Shown here: piece after piece, positions 1 through 10,877 of the stretch | Numbering within the stretch: position 1 is the first letter of the stretch | Layout of the letters: each line of letters opens with the position of its first letter | Virus record (IMG/VR): IMGVR_UViG_2541047728_000018 | DNA: 11,200 bases | Reading direction: 5' to 3' (one strand) | DNA from: a virus | Lineage: Duplodnaviria; Heunggongvirae; Uroviricota; Caudoviricetes | The notes under the pieces: generated by a model | Seen by the model: the letters and a program-made list of their open reading frames with translations, nothing else | What the model was told of the DNA's origin: nothing | Database searches by the model: none | Program-made: the position numbers and the translations under genes

Positions 1-1242
1 ATGGCGAGAAAAACACACCCATTAACCACAGTGCAGATCAAAGCAGCCAGACCAGCGCAAAAGGAGTACACCCTGCAGGACGGCGGAGGGCTTTTTCTCC
101 TGGTCAAACCGTCTGGATCAAAACTCTGGAGATTTTCCTACTACCGACCATCGGACAAAAAAAGAATATTGCTGAGTTTTGGATCGCTTGAAGATGTTTC
201 CCTGGCTGATGCCAGAAAACGCCGTAGCGAGTACAGGACGTTAATCAGTGCCGGAACTGACCCGCAGGACCACGAGAGGCAAAAAAGAGAGACAGAGGCC
301 CGAAGACAAGGGAACACGTTCGAAAATGTGGCGGCGGCATGGTACCAGGTGAAAATCAGCCAGAATCTGGCCCCCAACACGATTAAAGACATCTGGCGTT
401 CGCTGGATAAATATGTATTCCCGTTCATCGGCAACACGCCAATAGATACCCTCACCGCCCGAAGGTTCGTTGAAGTGCTTACCCCCATCAAGGAGCGCGG
501 CAACCTGGAAACACTCAAGCGGGTTTTACAGCGCGTTAATGAGGTAATGGATTACGCCGCCAACAGTGGGCTGATTGATGCCAATCCGGCTATGAATGTG
601 CGTAAGGCGTTTCCCTCACCTGTAAAAAAACATATGCCAACAATCCGCCCCGAACAGCTGCCGGAGCTTATGCAGGCTTTATCAGTATCGGCAACAGAAC
701 GGCAGACCAGATTACTGATTGAATGGCAGTTACTGACCGTAACCCGTCCCGCCGAAGCGTCATCAACGCGGTGGGATGAAATCAACCTGGACGCGAAGCA
801 ATGGACGATACCTGCCGGACGCATGAAGATGCGCAGGGATCACGTTATCCCGCTTTCCGGTCAGGCTATGGCGGTGCTGGAGGCCATGAAACCAATCAGC
901 CACCACCGCAATTACGTTTTCCCAAGTCTGAAAGACCCACAGCAGCCGATGAACAGCCAGACAGCTAACGCAGCATTGCGGCGTATGGGATTCGCTGGCG
1001 TGCTGGTGTCTCATGGATTACGCGCCATATTCAGCACAGCAGCGAACGAGGAAGGATTCGAGCCGGACGTAATAGAGGCGGCACTTGCCCACGTCGACAC
1101 CAACGAAGTTAGACGGGCATACAACCGGAGCAACTACATAGAAAAACGCATCGTGCTGATGCGCTGGTGGGGCGAATTTGTCGAGGCTGCGGCGACGGGC
1201 GTAACCCTCGCCAGTGGTAAAAGGGGTATCCGAGCCGTGTAG
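1..1242 (+). CDS. int: Tyrosine-type site-specific integrase, P4-like family
   Basis: 413-aa ORF. N-terminal arm-binding-type motif (GGGLFLLVKPSGSKLWRFSYY) typical of P4-family integrases; C-terminal catalytic signature VTRPAEA (Arg), HGLRAIFST (H-x-x-R) and RRAYNRSNY (Tyr). Sits at the element boundary, as expected for an island integrase. Confidence 0.9.
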   Translation: MARKTHPLTTVQIKAARPAQKEYTLQDGGGLFLLVKPSGSKLWRFSYYRPSDKKRILLSFGSLEDVSLADARKRRSEYRTLISAGTDPQDHERQKRETEARRQGNTFENVAAAWYQVKISQNLAPNTIKDIWRSLDKYVFPFIGNTPIDTLTARRFVEVLTPIKERGNLETLKRVLQRVNEVMDYAANSGLIDANPAMNVRKAFPSPVKKHMPTIRPEQLPELMQALSVSATERQTRLLIEWQLLTVTRPAEASSTRWDEINLDAKQWTIPAGRMKMRRDHVIPLSGQAMAVLEAMKPISHHRNYVFPSLKDPQQPMNSQTANAALRRMGFAGVLVSHGLRAIFSTAANEEGFEPDVIEAALAHVDTNEVRRAYNRSNYIEKRIVLMRWWGEFVEAAATGVTLASGKRGIRAV

Positions 1243-1738: not shown

Positions 1739-1945
1739 ATGGAAGCAATCAGAAAAATTATCTTTCGCCAGGAAGTAAAAAAAATTATCCACATCAAGGC
1801 AGACAGCACGCTGCAAAGCATGATCAACGCCGGAGAATTTCCGCAGGGTTTTCGCGTTGGTTTACGCCGTCGCGGATGGTATGAGGATGATGTGTTGGCC
1901 TGGCAGAAAGAACGCGAACAGGAAGCACGCGGAACGGCTGCTTAA
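1739..1945 (+). CDS. alpA: AlpA-family phage transcriptional regulator / excisionase-like HTH protein
   Basis: 68-aa ORF; ...LQSMINAGEFPQGFRVGLRRRGWYEDDVLAWQKER matches the AlpA family pattern (helix, then F-P-x-x-x-x-x-G-x-R-x-x-x-W, then acidic tail). Its position after int is typical of P4-like and PICI-like islands. Confidence 0.8.
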   Translation: MEAIRKIIFRQEVKKIIHIKADSTLQSMINAGEFPQGFRVGLRRRGWYEDDVLAWQKEREQEARGTAA

Positions 1946-2834: not shown

Positions 2835-3291
2835 AAACCGCTTGCAAAAAATTATCACGGGGCTGTATGCTTCCCCCGTCGCCCACATGGCGACCGGGTT
2901 TAGCAGCCTGAATACATCTGGCGGACAGCCGCCCACATCCGATAAGCGGTTTTTTTGTGTCCGTAAACCTACCCATACCCGCATTATGGCGGGGCGTAAC
3001 GGGGGAGCCTTTGTGCTCGCTGGTTTCCAGATGACCAGTCTGCTAACCCTGTTACGTCTCGCCACCATGTTTAGCAGCGTAGTAGCGAGACTCCTTAAAA
3101 TTCATCTGGGAGCCTTTCACATGGCTGTATTCGCACGCCCTTATTTTGTCTGGCGCTTTATGCAGTGCCTGACAGACAGTATTGCAATATTCACCGTTAC
3201 CGCTGCCACTGAGCGCGAAGCACGTGCACAGCTGCCGCACGCACATCTTATTTTTGTCGCCCGTATTCGCCAGGGGGGGAGTCATGCATAA
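2827..3291 (+). CDS. Protein (154 aa) whose C-terminal ~56 aa are paralogous to the preceding small ORF; alternative internal start at 3121
   Basis: Start overlaps the upstream stop in ATGCGTAA (2827-2834). C-terminus FVWRFMQCLTDSIAIFTVTAATEREARAQLPHAHLIFVARIRQGGSHA. ATG at 3121 has a GGGAG SD and would give a 56-aa paralog instead. Confidence 0.35.
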   Translation: MRKNRLQKIITGLYASPVAHMATGFSSLNTSGGQPPTSDKRFFCVRKPTHTRIMAGRNGGAFVLAGFQMTSLLTLLRLATMFSSVVARLLKIHLGAFHMAVFARPYFVWRFMQCLTDSIAIFTVTAATEREARAQLPHAHLIFVARIRQGGSHA

Positions 3292-3516: not shown

Positions 3517-3816
3517 ATGAAAAATAAAAATTCTGGCGTTACTGCCAGCGGCCCCGCTCGTCCTGAATTTATGAACGGCGATATTTACCGCGATAAATAT
3601 GGCGGCATGGTAACGATTAAAGGCGTGGCAGAACGGCGCATCACCTACCGTCGTGAAGGCTACGAATATGATTGCGTGATGCCTGTTTATCAGTTTGATC
3701 GTGATTTTTCTCTGGTGCAGGCAGCGCCCCGTAGTGTGCCCACCAGCAGGGAGAAAGCACGCGCCAATATTCAGGAAATAAAAAAGATGCTTAACGTATT
3801 CAGGGGTAAAAAATGA
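3517..3816 (+). CDS. Hypothetical protein (99 aa), translationally coupled to the primase
   Basis: SD GGAGAA upstream; its stop overlaps the primase start in ATGA (3813-3816). Confidence 0.55.
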   Translation: MKNKNSGVTASGPARPEFMNGDIYRDKYGGMVTIKGVAERRITYRREGYEYDCVMPVYQFDRDFSLVQAAPRSVPTSREKARANIQEIKKMLNVFRGKK

Positions 3817-5561
3817 AACTGGCACCGAACGTAAAAAAACAGCCACGCGGAATAAAACACAAAGACACAGAGGTAATTATTTTCGCGGGTAGTGATGCCT
3901 GGTCGCACGCGAAACAATGGCAGGAGCAGGATGGCCCCGCATCCGGCGATAATGTGCCGCCTGTGTGGCTTGGGCCAAATCAGCTTGCCGAACTTGATGC
4001 ACTGAAAATTGTTCCGGATGGAAAAAAACGCGTAAGGCTGTACCAGGCCGGAGAACTGGATTTGGTGGAGACCAAAAAGATTGGTCAGAAGCTGGCGGCG
4101 GCAGATATTCAGGACGCAAATTTTTACCCCGAAGGAATGCACGTCCAGAAGTGTGAAAACTGGCGGCGCTATCTGAATGCTGAGCGTGAAAATATTGCCG
4201 CAGGGCTTACCATGCCGGAGCAGAAAAATACGCAACTGGCACAAATGGCAGACAGTGAGCGCGCGCAGCTGCTTGCCGAGCGCTTTGATGGCGTTTGTGT
4301 GCATCCTGAAAGTGAAATCGTTCACGTATGGCGCGGCGGGGTATGGTGTCCGGTCAGCACAATGGAGCTGAGCCGCGAAATGGTGGCGATCTATTCAGAG
4401 CACAGGGCCACTTTCAGCAAGCGCGTAATCAATAACGCCGTGGAAGCGTTAAAAGTTATTGCCGAACCAATGGGCGAGCCGTCCGGCTATTTGCTGCCGT
4501 TCGCCAATGGTGCGCTTGACCTGAAAACGGGGGAATTTTCCCCGCACACGCCGGAGAACTGGATCACCACGCACAACGGCATTGAGTACACGCCACCAGC
4601 ACCCGGGGAGAACATCCGCGATAACGCGCCAAACTTTCATAAATGGCTTGAGCACGCAGCCGGAAAAGACCCGAGCAAGATGATGCGTATATGTGCCGCG
4701 CTGTACATGATTATGGCGAACCGGTACGACTGGCAGATGTTTATTGAGGCCACCGGAGACGGCGGGAGCGGTAAAAGTACATTCACACACATAGCCAGCC
4801 TTCTGGCAGGGAAACAGAACACGGTAAGCGCTGAAATGACATCGCTTGATGATGCTGGTGGACGTGCGCAGGTTGTCGGGAGTCGTCTTATCGTCCTGGC
4901 TGACCAGCCGAAATATACAGGCGAAGGAACGGGCATCAAGAAAATCACAGGCGGCGACCCCGTGGAAGTTAACCCGAAATATGAAAAGCGTTTCACGGCG
5001 GTAATCAGGGCGGTGGTGCTGGCGACCAACAACAACCCGATGATATTCACCGAACGGGCCGGAGGTGTGGCACGTCGTCGCGTGATTTTCCGTTTCGACA
5101 ATATCGTCAGTGAGGCCGAAAAAGACAGGGAGCTACCGGAAAAGATCGCGGCTGAAATCCCTGTCATTATCCGCCGATTGCTGGCGAACTTTACCGACCC
5201 TGAGAAGGCACGGGCTTTACTACTGGAACAGCGTGACGGTGATGAAGCTCTGGCAATAAAGCAACAGACGGATCCGGTTATTGAGTTTTGCCAGTTCCTG
5301 AATTTTCTGGAGGAAGCACGCGGCCTGATGATGGGCGGCGGTGGCGATTCAGTGAAGTACACGACCAGAAACAGCCTTTACCGCGTCTATCTGGCGTTTA
5401 TGGCGTACGCAGGCAGGAGCAAACCGCTAAACGTAAATGACTTTGGCAAGGCTATGAAGCCAGCCGCGAAAGTTTACGGACATGAATATATTACGCGGAA
5501 AGTTAAGGGAGTAACGCAGACTAACGCAATAACAACAGACGAGTGCGACGCGTTTTTATAA
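3813..5561 (+). CDS. Phage/plasmid primase-helicase, P4 alpha-like (D5_N / primase C-terminal type)
   Basis: 582-aa ORF with Walker A motif GDGGSGKST; overall layout of P4-family primase/helicase C-terminal region; placed between alpA and an iteron origin as in P4-like and PICI replicons. Confidence 0.85.
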   Translation: MKLAPNVKKQPRGIKHKDTEVIIFAGSDAWSHAKQWQEQDGPASGDNVPPVWLGPNQLAELDALKIVPDGKKRVRLYQAGELDLVETKKIGQKLAAADIQDANFYPEGMHVQKCENWRRYLNAERENIAAGLTMPEQKNTQLAQMADSERAQLLAERFDGVCVHPESEIVHVWRGGVWCPVSTMELSREMVAIYSEHRATFSKRVINNAVEALKVIAEPMGEPSGYLLPFANGALDLKTGEFSPHTPENWITTHNGIEYTPPAPGENIRDNAPNFHKWLEHAAGKDPSKMMRICAALYMIMANRYDWQMFIEATGDGGSGKSTFTHIASLLAGKQNTVSAEMTSLDDAGGRAQVVGSRLIVLADQPKYTGEGTGIKKITGGDPVEVNPKYEKRFTAVIRAVVLATNNNPMIFTERAGGVARRRVIFRFDNIVSEAEKDRELPEKIAAEIPVIIRRLLANFTDPEKARALLLEQRDGDEALAIKQQTDPVIEFCQFLNFLEEARGLMMGGGGDSVKYTTRNSLYRVYLAFMAYAGRSKPLNVNDFGKAMKPAAKVYGHEYITRKVKGVTQTNAITTDECDAFL

Positions 5562-5576
5562 TTTTTTGTAATTGCT

Positions 5577-5800
5577 GTCTACCCTGTCTACCTGAGTAAA
5601 GAAAAATACATTTAATTCAGTGCATTAAGTTAGGTAGATAGCTTTTTTTTACTGTCTACCCACTATCTACCCTCTCTACCTGATTTTACCTGAATCAGAC
5701 AGGGAGGTAGATACGGGGTAGATAGTGGATAAAAGCACTCTACCCCGCTGAAAGCCGCGCCATTACTGGCATGAGGGCCACTAAGGTAGATAAGGTAGAC
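5577..5800. repeat. Iteron-type replication origin (about 11 copies of GGTAGAT(A) / (G)TCTACC in both orientations) with a DnaA-box-like site
   Basis: + orientation copies (xTCTACC) at 5577, 5586, 5654, 5665, 5674, 5738; inverted copies (GGTAGAx) at 5633, 5706, 5717, 5785, 5794. AGTGGATAA (8/9 match to DnaA box TGTGGATAA) at about 5724-5732. AT-rich spacer at 5596-5650. Lies immediately downstream of the primase gene. Confidence 0.6.
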
Positions 5801-5849
5801 AAGGGGAGGCACAACTCAAAACTTTTTAAACGAGGGGGTAAAAATAAAT

Positions 5850-6128
5850 ATGCACACTTCAGGGAAATTTAATAAATCACTCAAAAAACGCAGAGACAGA
5901 ACAGAACCGAAATATCGCGCGTTAGATATGACAGAGCACGCTTTAAAGGTGGCAATCAGAACGATAGACCGCCACGCGGGGGAAGGATACGCGAAAGCAC
6001 ATCCCGAACTGATAAGCGCATTCATGACCACGACGGCGGCAAACTTTGCCACGCTGACAGAACGGGAGATTGCCGAAGCGGAACAGGTAACAACCATCAA
6101 CGTTAAAACCGGAGAGGTGGAATCATGA
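5850..6128 (+). CDS. Hypothetical protein (92 aa)
   Basis: SD GAGGGGG upstream; its stop overlaps the ssb start (ATGA at 6125-6128). Confidence 0.5.
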   Translation: MHTSGKFNKSLKKRRDRTEPKYRALDMTEHALKVAIRTIDRHAGEGYAKAHPELISAFMTTTAANFATLTEREIAEAEQVTTINVKTGEVES

Positions 6129-6547
6129 CAGCACAGATAGCAGCTTACGGGCGGCTGGTGGACGACCCGCAGGTAAAACAGACCAGCAAGGGCACACCGA
6201 TGACGCTGGCGCGTATGGCGGTCCCCCTTCCGTGCAGCCAGGCAGATGACGGAACGGCGACGATGTGGTTATCCGTCCTGGCATTTGGCAGACAGGCCGA
6301 AGCACTGGAAAGGCACCGCAAGGGTGAACTCCTGAGCGTGGCGGGTAACATGCAGATCAGCCAGTGGACTGGGCAGAACGGAGAAACGCGGCAGGGCTGG
6401 CAGGTTATCGCAGACAGTGTAATCAGTGCGCGAACGGCGCGACTGGGCGGCAAAAAAGGTCAACAGGGCCAGGCTACTGACGCGCTGAACAGGGCAAAAC
6501 AACAGGCGGGGAATGATGATCCGTACGGGGATAACATACCGTTTTAA
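6125..6547 (+). CDS. ssb: Single-stranded DNA-binding protein (SSB) homolog
   Basis: 140 aa. OB-fold core alignable from memory to E. coli SSB (IAAYGRLVDDPQV..., WLSVLAFGRQAEALERHRKGELLSVAGNMQISQWT...), glycine/glutamine-rich linker, and C-terminal acidic tip ending DDPYGDNIPF (compare the DDDIPF tail of SSB). Confidence 0.75.
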   Translation: MTAQIAAYGRLVDDPQVKQTSKGTPMTLARMAVPLPCSQADDGTATMWLSVLAFGRQAEALERHRKGELLSVAGNMQISQWTGQNGETRQGWQVIADSVISARTARLGGKKGQQGQATDALNRAKQQAGNDDPYGDNIPF

Positions 6548-6563
6548 GCGACGAGTGACAGAA

Positions 6564-6585
6564 GCCGGAGCAATCCGGCTTTTTT
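6564..6585 (+). terminator. Rho-independent terminator after ssb
   Basis: Stem GCCGGA / TCCGGC with GCAA loop, followed by TTTTTT. Confidence 0.65.
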
Positions 6586-6587
6586 AC

Positions 6588-6760
6588 GGGTCCTCCTGGC
6601 GGGGTGGGCCTGAACACGGGGCGGGAGGCGCGGAAAAAAGCGCATTTTTGTGATTTTATCGTCATCATCATCATGAGCGTAATTTATTGTTTTTAATTGT
6701 TTTGATGCAAAAAAGATGATGGTTGTGGTTAATTTTTGTTCGACATCTTTGCAGGCAGAT
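6588..6760 (+). other. Degenerate cos-like site (cosQ-like GGGTCCTCCTGGC, altered cosN, satellite-type cosB-like tract)
   Basis: Paralogous to 9030-9130. cosQ-like box at 6588-6600; cosN-like ACGGGGCGGGAGGCGCGG at 6616-6633 (2-nt deletion plus substitutions relative to the intact copy); downstream GGTTGTGGTTAATTTTTGTTCGACATCTTT resembles GGTGGTGGTTTTGTTGTTTGCTCTATCTTT at 9109-9138. Confidence 0.4.
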
Positions 6761-6766
6761 AAAAAA

Positions 6767-6804
6767 GCCCGATAAGGTCAGAGGTGGCTTATCGGGCTTT
6801 TGCA
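6767..6804. terminator. Strong hairpin (11-bp stem) flanked by an A run and T-rich tail; bidirectional terminator-like
   Basis: AGCCCGATAAG (6767-6777) / CTTATCGGGCT (6789-6799), 11-nt loop, preceded by AAAAAA and followed by TTTGC. Confidence 0.3.
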
Positions 6805-6877
6805 TATGAGGCTTTTTGGTGCACTGACACACATGATCGGGATCATCATTTCATAATTTGCAACACAACTCAATATC

Positions 6878-6927
6878 ATTGCACAAAATGCAATCATGAT
6901 TATAATCAGAGCTGGATGAACATCCAG
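6878..6927 (+). promoter_or_regulatory. Candidate regulated promoter of the capsid operon
   Basis: Perfect -10 TATAAT at 6901-6906 with a weak -35 (TTGCAC at 6879-6884); inverted repeat ATTGCA-N5-TGCAAT at 6878-6894 over the -35 region; perfect palindrome CTGGATG-AA-CATCCAG at 6912-6927 just downstream of the -10. Confidence 0.35.
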
Positions 6928-6962
6928 TTATGATTTTTTAAGTCGAAGAGGAATTTCTTACT

Positions 6963-7169
6963 ATGGCTGAAGAGAAAAAAGGCGGTGTTTCGGTGTACAT
7001 AAGCCCCGAAATCGTGGAGGTGCTCAAGCAGCGCCACAAAAAAAACTATGAGGCTGGCGTGGCGGCTGGACTGGATCCGCTGATGACGCCGGAGCCGTCG
7101 ATAGGTTCACTTGTACGCTCTTATTTACTTGCGGCGCTTGGGATGCATAAAAATTATGGGGGTGAATAA
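6963..7169 (+). CDS. Hypothetical protein (68 aa), first gene of the head module
   Basis: ORF whose stop (TAA 7167-7169) overlaps the capsid gene ATG (7169-7171); purine-rich SD upstream. Confidence 0.45.
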   Translation: MAEEKKGGVSVYISPEIVEVLKQRHKKNYEAGVAAGLDPLMTPEPSIGSLVRSYLLAALGMHKNYGGE

Positions 7170-8224
7170 TGGCAGGCAAAGCAACGGCACTTAACACTAA
7201 CCAGCTTTTCATGTACCTGAATCGCGGGGATATTGCGGATTTTAAATTCAGCCCTCTGTTTACCACGCTGTTTTTCCCGAACGTGGCGACATTCAGCACG
7301 CAAAACATCATGCTGGATACCCTGGACATTGAAGAAGTCACCATGTCGGCGTTTTGTTCGCCTATGGTGGGTAGCCAGGTTCAGCGCGATAAAGGGTACG
7401 AAACCAGCACAATCAAACCTGGCTACATGAAGCCAAAGCACGAAATCGATCCAACGAAAACCATCATGCGCATGGCTGGAGAAGATCCGGCACAGCTTAA
7501 CGACCCTACCTATCGCCGTATGCGCCTGATTACTGGCAACATGCGCCGCCAGATAAACGCCATTAAGGCACGCGTGGAATGGCTGGCGGTGAATGCGGTA
7601 ACGACCGGAAAAAACATCATTGAGGGCGAAGGCATAGAACGCTATGAAATCGACTGGAAAATACCGGAAAACTGCATCATAGAGCAGGCCAAGGGTAAAA
7701 AATGGTCCGAGCAGGATAAAGACATGCACGACCCAATCTATGACATCGAGCTTTATGCTGATCAGGCTGGTTGCCCCGCAAACGTCATGATTATGGGCGC
7801 TGAGGTATGGCGAACGTTACGCAGCTTTAAAAAATTCCGTGAGCTGTACGATCTTTCCCGTGGTTCAGAGTCCGCCGCAGAGCTGGCCTGTAAAAACCTG
7901 GGCGAAGTGGTGAGCTTTAAAGGCTATCTGGGCGATATTGCCCTTATCGTCTATTCCGGCAAATACACTGACAGCGACGGCACAGAAAAATATTTCCTTG
8001 AGCCTGATTTGCTGGTTCTGGGCAGCACCAACAATAAAGGGCTGGTGGCCTATGGTGCGATTATGGATCAGGACGCAGTAAGAACGGGCGCAACGCAAAA
8101 CATGTTTTACCCGAAAAACTGGATTGAGGACGGCGATCCGGCGATTGAGTACGTGCAGACGCACAGCGCACCGCAGCCGGTTCCGGCAGATATTCGCAAA
8201 TTTGTTACCGTCAAAATTGGTTAA
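7169..8224 (+). CDS. Major capsid protein, lambda gpE family
   Basis: 351 aa. Collinear similarity to lambda gpE recalled from memory: KFSPLFTTLFFPN vs KFDPLFLRLFFRE; PGYMKPKHEIDP vs PGYVKPKHEVNP; DPTYRRMRLITGNMR vs DPAYRRRRIIMQNMR; YPKNWIEDGDPAIEYVQTHSAP vs YPKNWVTTGDPAREFTMIQSAP. Good SD GGGGGTGA. Confidence 0.85.
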   Translation: MAGKATALNTNQLFMYLNRGDIADFKFSPLFTTLFFPNVATFSTQNIMLDTLDIEEVTMSAFCSPMVGSQVQRDKGYETSTIKPGYMKPKHEIDPTKTIMRMAGEDPAQLNDPTYRRMRLITGNMRRQINAIKARVEWLAVNAVTTGKNIIEGEGIERYEIDWKIPENCIIEQAKGKKWSEQDKDMHDPIYDIELYADQAGCPANVMIMGAEVWRTLRSFKKFRELYDLSRGSESAAELACKNLGEVVSFKGYLGDIALIVYSGKYTDSDGTEKYFLEPDLLVLGSTNNKGLVAYGAIMDQDAVRTGATQNMFYPKNWIEDGDPAIEYVQTHSAPQPVPADIRKFVTVKIG

Positions 8225-8235
8225 CGGGGGATTCT

Positions 8236-8571
8236 ATGGACACTCCATACATTGAGTTATTTGCAGGCAGTCAGCAGGTCGCCACGACGCTGGTACATTT
8301 TGCCGCTGATGCTGGCGTTATTCAGGAATTTACCCCGCTGATGCTGGCGGACAATGGCGAGTTTAAGCCGTGGGATGGTAAGGAATCTGGCAAGGCTGTT
8401 TATCTGACCTCGTACCCTGTGGACACGTCAAAGCAGAAATCAGCACAGTGTTACAAGACGGGGATATTCAATATTGCCGCCGTTAACTGGCCTGAGAGCG
8501 TCGACACCGATGCGAAAAAATGCGCCGCCTTTGCGGGTTCTGGCGTATCCGTTCAGCCGCTGGCCCGATAA
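8236..8571 (+). CDS. Head decoration protein, lambda gpD-like
   Basis: 111 aa. TPLMLADNGEFKPWDG vs gpD TPLMLDTSSRKLVAWDG; YKTGIFNIAAVNWPESVDTDAKKCAAFAGSGVSVQ vs [43 protein letters not shown]. Confidence 0.75.
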   Translation: MDTPYIELFAGSQQVATTLVHFAADAGVIQEFTPLMLADNGEFKPWDGKESGKAVYLTSYPVDTSKQKSAQCYKTGIFNIAAVNWPESVDTDAKKCAAFAGSGVSVQPLAR

Positions 8572-8583
8572 GCAGGGGGAACG

Positions 8584-8997
8584 ATGGCAACGAATGAAAG
8601 CATCATGACGCTACCGCTGGCGAGTAAATTTAAAGCCGAAGCGCGGGCAATGGCTGACAGAGGTTTATCAACCTATGAGGCCGTATATCAACTAAACAAA
8701 CTGGAAGAGCAGGACAAGCCGCGCGCTGATGCGATTATGGCGCTTGATGAATCTGGCGACTATCAGCCGCTGTTACGTGCAATGGCAAACGTGCCTTGTA
8801 TCGATGTTGGTACGGCTAAAAGCATCCTTAGCATGACCATAGAGCAGGAACGTCCGAAGGTTGCGCCGGAACTTACTGCAGCCTTTGAAAACTTTATGGA
8901 CATGCACAGCCCGCAAGCCGTATCAGCTGGCATGGCATACGATGGCAGAAACCAGGGCGATGACGGCGACATCGATCGCATACTGAAAACCATCTGA
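8584..8997 (+). CDS. Hypothetical protein (137 aa) in the head module
   Basis: Good SD AGGGGGA, tight spacing after the decoration gene, followed by a terminator. No recognisable family. Confidence 0.5.
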   Translation: MATNESIMTLPLASKFKAEARAMADRGLSTYEAVYQLNKLEEQDKPRADAIMALDESGDYQPLLRAMANVPCIDVGTAKSILSMTIEQERPKVAPELTAAFENFMDMHSPQAVSAGMAYDGRNQGDDGDIDRILKTI

Positions 8998-9003
8998 GAC
9001 AAG

Positions 9004-9027
9004 GCCGGAGAAATCCGGCTTTTTTTT
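9004..9027 (+). terminator. Rho-independent terminator closing the head module
   Basis: Stem GCCGGA / TCCGGC with GAAA loop, followed by 8 T. Confidence 0.65.
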
Positions 9028-9029
9028 AT

Positions 9030-9138
9030 GGGTCCTTTCCGGCATATGGACCCGTTACGGGGCGGCGACCTCGCGGTTTTTCGCTATTTATGAGCTTTTT
9101 CAGGGGGGTGGTGGTGGTTTTGTTGTTTGCTCTATCTT
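9030..9138 (+). other. cos site (cosQ-like, lambda-identical cosN, non-lambda cosB) upstream of the Nu1-like gene
   Basis: GGGTCCTTTCCGG (9030-9042) matches the lambda right-end cosQ-proximal sequence; CGTTACGGGGCGGCGACCTCGCGG carries the lambda 12-nt cohesive end GGGCGGCGACCT (9060-9071). Downstream sequence diverges from lambda cosB (no CGTTTCC-type R sites). Confidence 0.7.
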
Positions 9139-9165
9139 TATGAATGAAAAGGGAAAGATGCAAAC

Positions 9166-9203
9166 AATACACCAACCTGAAGCAGTAATTAAGTTGGTGT
9201 ATT
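9166..9203. promoter_or_regulatory. Perfect 11-bp inverted repeat AATACACCAAC / GTTGGTGTATT just upstream of the Nu1-like start codon
   Basis: Arms at 9166-9176 and 9193-9203 with 16-nt spacer; the right arm ends 2 nt before the ATG at 9205. Could be a cosB-type binding site or an RBS-occluding stem-loop. Confidence 0.3.
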
Positions 9204-9204
9204 A

Positions 9205-9747
9205 ATGAAATCGCACCTGATGAACAAAAAAAACATGGCGAAAAGCTGCCGTGTAAGTGCGACAGCGTTCGACAAGTGGGGAGTGACTCCCGTTGAACGT
9301 AAAGGCCGTGAGGCGTTTTACGATGTTGCCAGCGTGATAGACAATAGGGTTAACAATGCAATTAGCCAGCTTACAAACGACAAAGGCGATATTGATGATG
9401 ATGAACTCTTACGAGTCAGGATCAGATTACTGACAGCACAGGCGGAGGCGCAGGAACTTAAAAACGAGCGCGATCGCGGTGACGTGATTGATACTGAGTT
9501 TTGCCTGTACGCGCTTTCAAAGCTGGCGAGTCAGATTTCATCAATCATGGACAGCCTCCCGCTTACTATGCAAAGGAGCTTCCCACAGATTACCCCCGCC
9601 ATGCTGGATAGGCTTAAAAGGGAAGTGGTTAAAGCCTGTAATGCCAGTGCCAGAGTTGCCGACAACCTCCCACAGATACTGGCTGATTACTTGAAAGAAA
9701 CAACCGGAAACGTACCGGAAAAGTTGCTACAGAAGAAAGGCGAGTAA
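9205..9747 (+). CDS. Terminase small subunit, lambda Nu1-like (possible packaging-redirection TerS)
   Basis: 180 aa. LLTAQAEAQELKNERDRGDVIDTEFCLYALSKLASQISSIMDSLPLTMQRSFPQI vs lambda Nu1 LTRAQADAQELKNARDSAEVVETAFCTFVLSRIAGEIASILDGLPLSVQRRFPEL; N-terminal wHTH region (NKKNMAKSC...FYDVASVI) is related but diverged. Alternative starts at 9220 or 9235; SD is weak. Confidence 0.8.
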   Translation: MKSHLMNKKNMAKSCRVSATAFDKWGVTPVERKGREAFYDVASVIDNRVNNAISQLTNDKGDIDDDELLRVRIRLLTAQAEAQELKNERDRGDVIDTEFCLYALSKLASQISSIMDSLPLTMQRSFPQITPAMLDRLKREVVKACNASARVADNLPQILADYLKETTGNVPEKLLQKKGE

Positions 9748-9775
9748 CAGACGCGCAATTATTGAACAAAACTGA

Positions 9776-9969
9776 GAAACGACATGAAAGCGTCATAAAT
9801 CGCCATTTTAGATGATTACCGTGTCGTTTCTTTTTATTGTGTATCTATTTAAAAACAAATAGTTATGTTCGAGAAGTACCGACATGCTTTTTCCAGAAAA
9901 ATTTTCATAAACAGATAAAAACCGCGAGGTCGCCGCCCCGTAACGGGTCCATAATTCCAGGAAGGACCC
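9776..9969 (-). other. Complete lambda-type cos (cosQ, cosN, cosB with R-site-like repeats) in inverted orientation
   Basis: 9917-9952 is the exact reverse complement of 9046-9081. Read on the minus strand, the flank resembles lambda cosB: TTTATGAAAATTTTTCTGG; AAAAGAAACGACACGG; CATGTCGTTTCTCAGTTTTGTTC (compare lambda TTTATGAAAATTTTCCGG; AAAGGAAACGACAGGTG; CTGTCGTTTCCTTTCTCTGTTTTTGTCC). cosQ-like GGGTCCTTCCTGG is the complement of 9957-9969. Confidence 0.65.
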
Positions 9970-10003: not shown

Positions 10004-10285
10004 ATGACAGAAGCCGAAATACTGGGATTAATCCGCCGTGCTGGTGGAATCAGCCAGCAGACTGACGAACAGGCCACGCAGCCGGACAGCGTGACAGCCG
10101 AAAATTATGCGCGTGTTGTTGCTGAGGTGATGCGCCGTGATGGTATCCAGCTTAATGATGTGGATATGCGCAACATACGGATCCGCGTTCTTGAAATGCT
10201 GGCCTACAATCGCCGCGTGGCACTGTATCGGGAAACGGAGAAAATTACATACCACTGGAAGAAGCCGGAGCGGTTGCGGCGGTAA
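10004..10285 (+). CDS. Hypothetical protein (93 aa)
   Basis: ORF with weak SD, immediately outside the inverted cos; Arg-rich C-terminus. No recognisable family. Confidence 0.4.
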   Translation: MTEAEILGLIRRAGGISQQTDEQATQPDSVTAENYARVVAEVMRRDGIQLNDVDMRNIRIRVLEMLAYNRRVALYRETEKITYHWKKPERLRR

Positions 10286-10462: not shown

Positions 10463-10877
10463 CATTGGCGTAATCCGGCGCGGTAACTTGCTGAACTTAA
10501 AGCAAAGCGCAAAATTGCGCTGGCTGGTGGGCATGATGCCGATATGGTGATCCCCATAACGGAAATATCCACCAGCACGGCAACGGCAGAATAGCCACAA
10601 CACAGAAAAACCACGAATATGGGGTTTTTGTTATGGCATGGGCATGATGACCGCCCCTGCTCTGAATGGTGGAAATCACCACGCAGATCATCCACCAGCT
10701 TCGTTTTTATAAATTAAACATCCGGGAAAATCCGACCCTGAATTGTGCATTTTTTCAGCAAATCATTTTAGTTATACGTTTGGTTATACGGTTTAAAAGT
10801 TGAATCATATACATTATTTTAAATCATGAAGTTACACGCTCAATTAAACTACTCTCGTGGACCAAAAATCCCAAGAA

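Follow-up and report, generated by a model that had tools for sequence, protein, structure and literature searches.

What does a phage satellite do with genes for a capsid protein and a decoration protein if it has no portal, no protease and no large terminase? This question is raised by an 11,200-nucleotide stretch of viral DNA (Caudoviricetes; IMG/VR record IMGVR_UViG_2541047728_000018), which as a whole is called the window below, and in which four consecutive genes at positions 6963-8997 include a lambda-type capsid gene. We conclude that this four-gene operon is almost certainly the head-shell module of a classical Gram-negative phage-inducible chromosomal island (PICI) of the EcCICFT073 type and that the complete element lies inside the window. 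A sequence-only reading of the same DNA had described the capsid and decoration genes without recognising in them the usual layout of classical Gram-negative PICIs.

That EcCICFT073-type PICIs carry capsid and decoration genes is not new: it was published in 2018, and a crystal structure exists for one of the products. The capsid gene c1499 and the decoration gene c1500 of EcCICFT073 were described by Fillol-Salom et al. 2018 (PMC6092414), and 21 of 29 reference Gram-negative PICIs have a capsid gene (PMC10111431). In the later literature we found no paper that gives the capsid/decoration module a function. The present analysis adds the assignment of a predicted scaffold, the conservation of the E→D gene order, a separate and probably old clade, purifying selection, a gpC-bearing relative and a conserved putative promoter/operator. 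Gene identities, architecture, conservation, selection and boundaries are established here. The joint explanation that we consider best, an EcCICFT073-family PICI with a head-shell operon that acts by the mechanism proposed below, is on balance probable.

The capsid operon

The operon and its flanking signals are as follows (aa, amino acids; dN/dS, ratio of nonsynonymous to synonymous substitution rates among satellite copies).

6849-6929, plus strand: candidate promoter/operator of the capsid operon, read from the sequence and conserved among satellites
6963-7169, plus strand: 68-aa satellite-specific protein, translationally coupled to the capsid gene (phrog_3255, E=8.5e-46; dN/dS 0.23-0.38)
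7169-8224, plus strand: major capsid protein (MCP), 351 aa, lambda gpE family with HK97 fold (PF03864 Phage_cap_E, E=1.9e-50; dN/dS 0.08-0.21)
8236-8571, plus strand: predicted head decoration protein (Dec), 111 aa, gpD/SHP family (PF02924 HDPD, E=2.5e-17; dN/dS 0.17-0.30)
8584-8997, plus strand: Nu3/gpC-C-terminal scaffold homolog, 137 aa, with a pair of ~40-aa repeats, the motif FENFMDMHSP and an acidic tail (dN/dS 0.17-0.47)
9001-9032, plus strand: intrinsic terminator closing the operon; its 9-bp stem has 5 GC pairs and leads into a T-run

The four open reading frames (ORFs) are tightly packed: the 68-aa gene and the MCP gene share the sequence TAATG, in which the stop codon of the first overlaps the start codon of the second, and the remaining gaps are 11-12 nt long. 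The MCP covers positions 16-328 of the 329 positions of the Phage_cap_E profile (172 bits, cut-off 22.9); over 327 aa it shares 43% identity with lambda gpE. Among solved structures its near-identical counterpart is PDB 3BQW ('Putative capsid protein of prophage', E=2e-230), which we take to be the CFT073 protein; lambda gpE (7VI9) follows with E=1e-80. 3BQW has served earlier as structural representative of the Phage_cap_E Pfam family and as a molecular-replacement model. The product of the next gene belongs to the gpD/SHP family according to its match to PF02924 (63.5 bits, cut-off 29.1) and is 36% identical to lambda gpD. Its closest solved relatives are 1TD0/1TD3 (E=6e-13), presumably SHP of phage 21, and lambda gpD is farther away (E=3.5e-9). 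The gpE-like and gpD-like assignments of the sequence-only reading are therefore borne out, and so is its statement that the order is reversed: a direct comparison gives E then D in the island and D then E in lambda. That the genes form an operon and that the 68-aa ORF lacks a functional match also held, whereas the second small ORF, of 137 aa, is not an unknown.

A predicted scaffold protein

The sequence-only reading had listed the scaffold among the missing head genes. This is wrong, as the 137-aa ORF is by its sequence relationships a scaffold homolog of the Nu3/gpC-C-terminal type. Residues 49-131 match the C terminus of Nu3/gp6/gpC of phage 21-type phages with 36-39% identity over 83 aa (tblastn, 2.3 Gb; E values from 2e-5 for the best match up to 4e-4). 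The protein also matches the C-terminal end of PHROG 53 (phrog_53, E=1e-8), its own family being phrog_1999. An exhaustive HMMER search brought up a bridging protein of 195 aa (P0041) with matches to phrog_1999 (1e-41), phrog_8399 'head scaffolding protein' (1e-34), phrog_8940 'capsid assembly protein' (2e-30) and the C terminus of phrog_53 (4e-44). P0041 aligns with both the 137-aa protein (E=2e-11) and lambda Nu3 (E=2e-16). In the multiple alignment the repeat units are collinear, and a common F-E-x-F-M-x-x-H-S-P motif and the acidic tail are shared; the repeat units and the C-terminal motif homology of the Nu3/gpC C-terminal domain are thus both present. Moreover, a satellite from Lelliottia has a full-length gpC homolog directly after its decoration gene (50% identical to lambda gpC, E=2e-135), and the 137-aa protein aligns to residues 311-413 of it. 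When aligned pairwise, the 137-aa protein and lambda Nu3 give E=0.14, which is too weak alone; the assignment is based instead on the phage 21-type matches, the bridging protein and the profile matches.

The 137-aa protein, compared to 201 aa of annotated lambda Nu3, has no match among the curated Pfam and NCBIfam models. We lean towards the view that its gene encodes a stand-alone Nu3-type scaffold whose origin is the C-terminal portion of a gpC-like protease-scaffold gene. The NCBI name of the protein, 'phage head-tail connector protein', was not adopted, since no NCBIfam model stands behind it and the homology is to the Nu3/gpC scaffold region. The name is probably a legacy of 'head-tail preconnector', the old lambda term for Nu3/gpC that is seen in phage annotations, and hence misleading.

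Boundaries and class of the element

The island extends over ~10.9 kb from int to a candidate attR and all main ORFs are on the plus strand. The same island is present in E. coli Nissle 1917, with tRNA-Pro/yejM on one side and a yejO remnant/narP on the other. One copy of the 16-nt direct repeat TTTTAGTTATACGTTT is found 87 nt upstream of int in Nissle 1917, the other near the right end of the window; the integrase is identical to that of the Nissle 1917 island, which adjoins tRNA-Pro, and attL lies just outside the window. The features outside the capsid operon and the packaging region are:

1-1242, plus strand: P4-type tyrosine integrase, left end of the island (Pfam Phage_integrase, Phage_int_M, Arm-DNA-bind_3)
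1739-1945, plus strand: AlpA-family regulator/excisionase (phrog_66, phrog_2790; homologs in related satellites match Pfam Phage_AlpA)
2982-3069, plus strand: C4 antisense RNA, lying in an immunity region that also has icd-like ORFs (Rfam RF01695, E=5e-13; 72.7 bits, gathering score 45)
3517-6547, plus strand: replication module (Pfam and PHROG matches), with the next four genes
3517-3816, plus strand: DUF4222 protein
3813-5561, plus strand: D5_N/DUF5906/Pox_D5 (D5/P4-type) primase-helicase
5850-6128, plus strand: 92-aa protein
6125-6547, plus strand: single-stranded DNA-binding protein (SSB)
10766-10781, no strand: candidate attR core at the right end of the island, the 16-nt repeat; the chromosomal yejO remnant and narP lie beyond it

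Neither the window (Pfam, PHROG) nor its flanks (context of the Nissle 1917 island) hold a portal, protease or large terminase gene. Likewise, there is no Pfam or PHROG match to tail and lysis genes in the window and none of these genes in the PGAP annotation of the Nissle 1917 island. By the Nissle 1917 context and the 16-nt repeat, the island is complete within the window. The description of a satellite-sized island without portal, protease and large terminase therefore stands for window and flanks alike. The size falls into the range of ~10-20 kb of classical Gram-negative PICIs, and the island shares their left-end integrase, mostly unidirectional genes, alpA followed by a primase/replication module, lack of tail, lysis, portal and large terminase genes, and a packaging module past the replication genes with helper-type cos and an Rpp/TerS homolog. 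Helper-dependent induction, packaging and high-frequency transfer are experimental results for EcCICFT073 only, which is another island (PMC6092414, PMC6739421).

The window is a recombinant mosaic. The Int, SSB, TerS and 93-aa proteins are identical to those of the Nissle 1917-type island (dS <=0.01), whereas the capsid cassette is only ~94% identical to the Nissle cassette and 99.5% identical to that of an Rpp-type island. This closest copy lies in an island between roxA and phoQ, and its next gene encodes a 144-aa protein that matches RppC (PDB 6HLK, E=8e-31), which is the arrangement of EcCICFT073. None of the complete E. coli genomes in the collection matches the whole window with more than 95.9% identity over 90% of its length.

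EcCICFT073 (Fillol-Salom et al. 2018 ISME J, 2019 Mol Cell) has the same layout, int-alpA-pri-(SSB)-[small ORF-c1499-c1500-small ORF]-cos1-packaging gene-cos2-93-aa gene, and the same two inverted cos sites with the lambda cosN. It differs in that the window island sits at tRNA-Pro/yejM and has another integrase (26% identity), has a full-length Nu1-type TerS where EcCICFT073 has RppA, and carries lambda-like cosB R-site motifs at cos2 that the Rpp-type island lacks. Compared to the head genes of lambda and phage 21 (C/Nu3, D or SHP, E), the coat, decoration and predicted scaffold proteins are homologous, but the order is E-D-Nu3' instead of C/Nu3-D-E, the predicted scaffold is stand-alone and lacks an S49 protease domain, identity to the nearest phage proteins is 36-46%, and an extra satellite-specific 68-aa gene precedes E.

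P4-like satellites share with the island the P4-type integrase, the AlpA-like regulator, the D5/P4-type primase, the icd-like region and the C4 RNA. P4 itself has no capsid protein gene, and with its P2 helper an external scaffold is used. In the island, a capsid gene is present and neither the scanned ORFs nor the PGAP annotation of the Nissle island gave matches to Sid, Psu or a Delta/Ogr-type activator. Capsid-forming PICIs (cf-PICIs, e.g. EcCIEDL933; Alqurainy et al. 2023) are, like the window island, int-alpA-rep satellites with their own MCP and small terminase. However, cf-PICIs encode capsid, protease, portal, head-tail connectors, HNH, TerS and TerL and steal tails only (PMC10085698), whereas portal, protease, connectors, HNH and TerL are all absent from island and flanks here and the capsid is of the lambda gpE family (PF03864). 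The contrast that the sequence-only reading drew to P4-like satellites, without a capsid gene, and to cf-PICIs, with a full head module, is correct.

SaPIbov5 Ccm, a capsid homolog, and SaPI1 CpmB, an alternative internal scaffold, are likewise satellite proteins that act on helper-derived heads, an analogy made in PMC6092414. Unlike Ccm and CpmA/CpmB of Gram-positive PICIs, to which it is unrelated in sequence, the EcCICFT073-type module shows no size redirection with lambda in EcCICFT073, and its coat, decoration and predicted scaffold genes occur together. Helper-embedded PICIs (11capE; PMC10111431) belong to the same satellite family and have their own gpE-family capsid gene; they differ from the window island, which is chromosomal (tRNA-Pro) and has no cis relationship with a helper. 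An example from Edwardsiella tarda (L006, 1-21047) interrupts the portal gene of a lambda-like prophage and splits it into 765-1625 and 11908-12681. The satellite carries a 70-aa ORF, MCP and Dec, and the host prophage has its own protease, D and E in lambda order.

Packaging genes and cos sites

The sequence-only reading held that integration, regulation and replication genes fill the remainder of the window. This is not so, because a Nu1-family small terminase gene and two lambda cosN sequences follow the capsid operon:

9045-9100, plus strand: cos1, with cosN at 9060-9071 (exact lambda sequence GGGCGGCGACCT) and a non-lambda cosB, 145 nt upstream of terS
9205-9747, plus strand: predicted small terminase TerS, Nu1 family, full length (PF07471, E=2.3e-23)
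9771-9953, minus strand: cos2, inverted, with cosN at 9927-9938 and lambda-like cosB R-site motifs GAAACGACA and TGTCGTTTC at lambda-like spacing
10004-10285, plus strand: conserved 93-aa protein of the packaging region (phrog_1561), kept in L001 (the Nissle 1917 island), L002, L003 and L008

TerS scores 83 bits against PF07471 (cut-off 30) and accordingly belongs to this family; its identity to lambda Nu1 is 35% over 179 aa, covering Nu1 residues 3-180, a span that includes the gpA-binding C-terminal region. The best phage match is gp1 of N15 with 46%, and none is higher in 50,697 phage genomes. Both cosN copies are the exact lambda cohesive-end sequence and lie within a 56-nt inverted repeat that flanks terS. 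At cos2, the motif GAAACGACA is found at +109 and TGTCGTTTC at +155 from cosN, compared to +115 and +152 for the lambda cosB R sites. The cosB of cos1 differs and has its own inverted repeat (9113-9130 / 9160-9177). The R-site motifs are found at neither cos of the Rpp-type sister island L002. This suggests that TerS-type islands have two cos sites with different small-terminase specificity. In EcCICFT073, cos1 and cos2 have been demonstrated to be functional (PMC6092414), and its dependence on TerS/TerL of the helper is a result of the literature.

An identity with Rpp was considered for the TerS-like and for the 93-aa protein and discarded: neither matches the solved RppC, whereas the 144-aa protein of the sister island does. 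The 93-aa protein stands downstream of cos2 in TerS-type and Rpp-type islands alike (dN/dS 0.19-0.35), and a search for solved relatives found none. A related E. coli island, L007, occupies this tRNA-Pro site too; its terS, at 12138-12722 on the minus strand, is opposite to the capsid operon, and terS orientation thus differs between islands. Although terS of the window is bracketed by inverted cos repeats, L007 has no cosN within one mismatch of the lambda sequence.

Conservation and selection

Ten satellite contexts were compared, drawn from E. coli, Salmonella, Edwardsiella, Lelliottia and Serratia, each with an integrase, AlpA and a primase or helicase. All ten show the E→D order and lack a portal and a TerL of their own; D→E is the order in the phages examined. 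Across Enterobacterales, satellites conserve the MCP-Dec pair in this E→D arrangement. A predicted protein of 463 aa (P0073) contains both a Phage_cap_E and an HDPD domain and is apparently an MCP-Dec fusion or a read-through; this two-domain architecture is consistent with the conserved E→D adjacency.

In E. coli, 598 of 5,426 complete genomes contain the cassette, 594 of them at least 80% of it, and the islands that bear it occupy three or more attachment sites. At synonymous divergences from 0.04 to saturation, dN/dS is 0.11-0.32 for the primase and 0.17-0.24 for SSB. Purifying selection acts on the cassette to a similar degree as on the replication genes.

Identity among satellites is at least 49% for MCP and at least 43% for Dec, and MCP and Dec diverge in parallel. 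Compared with the two phage proteins examined, the satellite proteins are 38-45% (MCP) and 26-40% (Dec) identical, and no MCP in the 50,697 phage genomes exceeds 46.5%. The closest phage relatives of MCP, Dec and predicted scaffold are of the phage 21 type, not lambda itself. These data speak for an old lineage that evolves with the satellites rather than one captured lately from a helper.

The 68-aa protein and the control region

The 68-aa protein has no match in Pfam, NCBIfam or PADLOC, and the protein and the cassette DNA are both absent from the 50,697 phage records. An AlphaFold2 model (mean confidence score pLDDT 75) has two helices, and Foldseek found nothing better than E=2 for it in the PDB. 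A ribbon-helix-helix reading was dropped as a mere guess from the predicted topology.

Upstream of its gene lies a region to which we would ascribe promoter/operator function. Its first element is a degenerate palindrome (6849-6863), which stands 30 bp ahead of the exact palindrome TTGCA-N5-TGCAA (TTGCACAAAATGCAA, 6879-6893) and is a copy of it; a perfect TATAAT (6901-6906) and, in the leader, a hairpin (6910-6929) follow. This region is kept in satellites of E. coli, Salmonella and Edwardsiella whose MCPs are merely 63-68% identical. The exact palindrome is confined to this position in each locus, occurring once in six loci and twice in L006, and the window has its sole copy at 6879. It is present in all eight loci with a gene of the 68-aa family (in one of them with one mismatch) and in none of the three loci without the gene. 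The co-occurrence is weak evidence that the 68-aa protein binds the palindrome, because the palindrome and the gene are adjacent. The leader hairpin with its T-run could be an attenuator or a target of antitermination. Terminator-like hairpins are also found upstream of the operon (~6562-6590 and 6757-6802), and with the terminator at its end the operon looks like an insulated transcription unit of its own. The scans for terminators and promoters were not enriched over shuffled sequences, and single sites are named here only if backed by conservation or position.

Proposed function of the module

MCP and Dec are the commonest late genes of Gram-negative PICIs and are conserved across genera without a known phenotype, which is a real unsolved problem. 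The most plausible role is co-assembly with the portal of a helper. We tentatively propose that the module builds, or co-builds, the shells of the island's transducing particles on a helper-supplied portal; this is a possibility to be taken seriously, though short of probable. After induction by a lambdoid cos helper, island coat and scaffold would assemble on the helper portal, either alone or mixed with helper coat, and a gpC-type protease of the helper would then remove the island scaffold. The island TerS, or Rpp together with helper TerS in sister islands, would bring helper TerL to the island cos, the island decoration protein would cement the expanded shell, and head-completion proteins and tails of the helper would finish the particle. 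The benefit would be a smaller dependence on, and less competition for, helper shells. Both the formation of shells on the portal of the helper and the loss of the scaffold to its protease are inferred, as is any effect on size. The set of partners is coherent: the island encodes the coat, its direct contacts (decoration and predicted scaffold) and the terminase specificity subunit, whereas portal, protease, motor and head-completion proteins are absent. The scaffold homolog, with a full protease-scaffold gene in one relative, and the separate lineage with its own gene order and putative promoter sharpen the hypothesis of shell making.

Several observations weigh against this proposal. Deletion of c1499 or c1500 altered neither interference with lambda nor transfer, c1499 was swapped for cat in the standard transferable construct, and lambda lysates held phage-sized DNA only (PMC6092414). 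The helpers in the published tests were lambda, phi80 and the CFT073 helper prophage (PMC6092414), and with the abundant coat protein of these three the module would be redundant; we propose that the deletions lack a phenotype because of this redundancy. The proposal presupposes that the island coat protein enters virions, and promoter and operator are read from consensus and conservation only. The scaffold gene is missing in L005, L006 and L008-L010 and is therefore not a universal part of the module. Finally, a Salmonella enterica satellite with gpE-family MCP and Dec (L010, 4292-13978) lies among the tail genes of a P2-like prophage; the head genes of this prophage are not seen in the retrieved stretch. 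If P2-type heads are built from another capsid family, and if that prophage is the helper, simple co-assembly would not apply to this pair.

Four other explanations compete with shell building on a helper portal. With specific natural helpers, coat and short scaffold might impose a smaller triangulation (T) number on some helper portals and thereby exclude the helper genome, as is known from SaPIbov5 Ccm and SaPI1 CpmB. The island indeed has a coat homolog plus a shortened scaffold (137 versus 201 aa of lambda Nu3), the strong conservation implies a benefit, and PmCI172, a Gram-negative PICI with a capsid homolog, makes small capsids (PMC6092414). However, all EcCICFT073 DNA packaged by lambda was phage-sized, deletion of c1499 or c1500 gave no relief of interference (PMC6092414), and many relatives lack the scaffold gene, which makes size redirection unlikely. 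Smaller capsids had also been suggested by the sequence-only reading; since the packaged DNA of an island with a 99.5%-identical cassette was phage-sized with lambda, phi80 and the CFT073 prophage as helpers (PMC6092414), small capsids are not made with these helpers. The second suggestion of that reading, interference with the helper by the capsid protein, fares no better, as the deletions were without relief (PMC6092414) and c1503 (RppA) alone blocked lambda when single genes of the region were expressed (PMC6739421). In a modified form, coat, decoration and scaffold would poison the heads of competing lambdoids that are not helpers, a second layer of defence that Rpp/TerS masked in the published tests. 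Satellites often stack redundant interference mechanisms (discussed in PMC6739421), the nearest relatives of all three proteins are phage 21-type heads and thus outside the published test set, and the published screen expressed genes singly only. Yet the other cloned genes of the region, when expressed singly, left lambda plaques unreduced, the deletions restored no plaquing, no PADLOC defence family matches, and 38-45% identity to phage coats makes efficient co-assembly uncertain; we rate this explanation slightly lower still.

The module could also be a backup that allows the use of helpers or cryptic prophages with interrupted, defective or weakly expressed capsid genes, for example where helper-embedded PICIs split late genes. 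The Edwardsiella satellite embedded in the portal gene of a lambda-like prophage fits this, as do 201 helper-embedded PICIs that sit in the helper capsid gene E yet have their own capsid gene (PMC10111431). But the authors of that study do not consider the redundancy essential, the Edwardsiella satellite MCP is just ~45% identical to the MCP of the prophage around it, and the window island resides at a chromosomal tRNA-Pro site outside any prophage, so that complementation appears rather improbable. The published deletions without phenotype and the variable late-gene content of the relatives, which suggests gain and loss, would finally agree with a non-functional remnant of the head module of an ancestral phage or capsid-forming satellite that is being lost. 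This is strongly disfavoured by the selection data and very improbable: dN/dS is 0.08-0.3 at synonymous divergences between 0.13 and saturation, the ORFs are intact across 594 E. coli genomes, and order, coupling and putative promoter are kept across genera.

If shells are indeed built or co-built on helper portals, it is tempting to speculate one step further, although we consider this doubtful as a whole: EcCICFT073-type PICIs would then be a 'shell-forming' class between classical PICIs and cf-PICIs, which with its natural helpers makes its own shell, maybe of a satellite-specific size, and has the helper supply portal, protease, TerL, completion proteins and tail. In this class the 68-aa protein would act as a new factor, either for operator control via TTGCA-N5-TGCAA or as an adaptor of the coat to a foreign portal. 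If these satellites do make or co-make their shells, the boundary between classical and capsid-forming PICIs would be blurred, a natural system for the assembly of a coat protein on a foreign portal would be at hand, and there would be a bearing on the design of PICI-based delivery particles.

Further observations on the island and its relatives

The C4 RNA is an immunity element of the P1/P7/P4 type, here inside a PICI; in the Nissle 1917 island the same region carries icd-like annotations. Among the related satellites, the late genes vary around the constant E-D pair: a Nu3-like scaffold in the E. coli clade, gpC and an FII-like protein in Lelliottia, a gpI-like protein in Serratia, and AlpA-like genes. 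In the Lelliottia sp. satellite (L011, 2660-13337), the full gpC is accompanied by an FII-like head-closure protein adjoining alpA and by a 142-aa protein with a TerS/Rpp-like N terminus. The gpI-like protein of the Serratia satellite (L009, 12122-12748) is a tail assembly protein.

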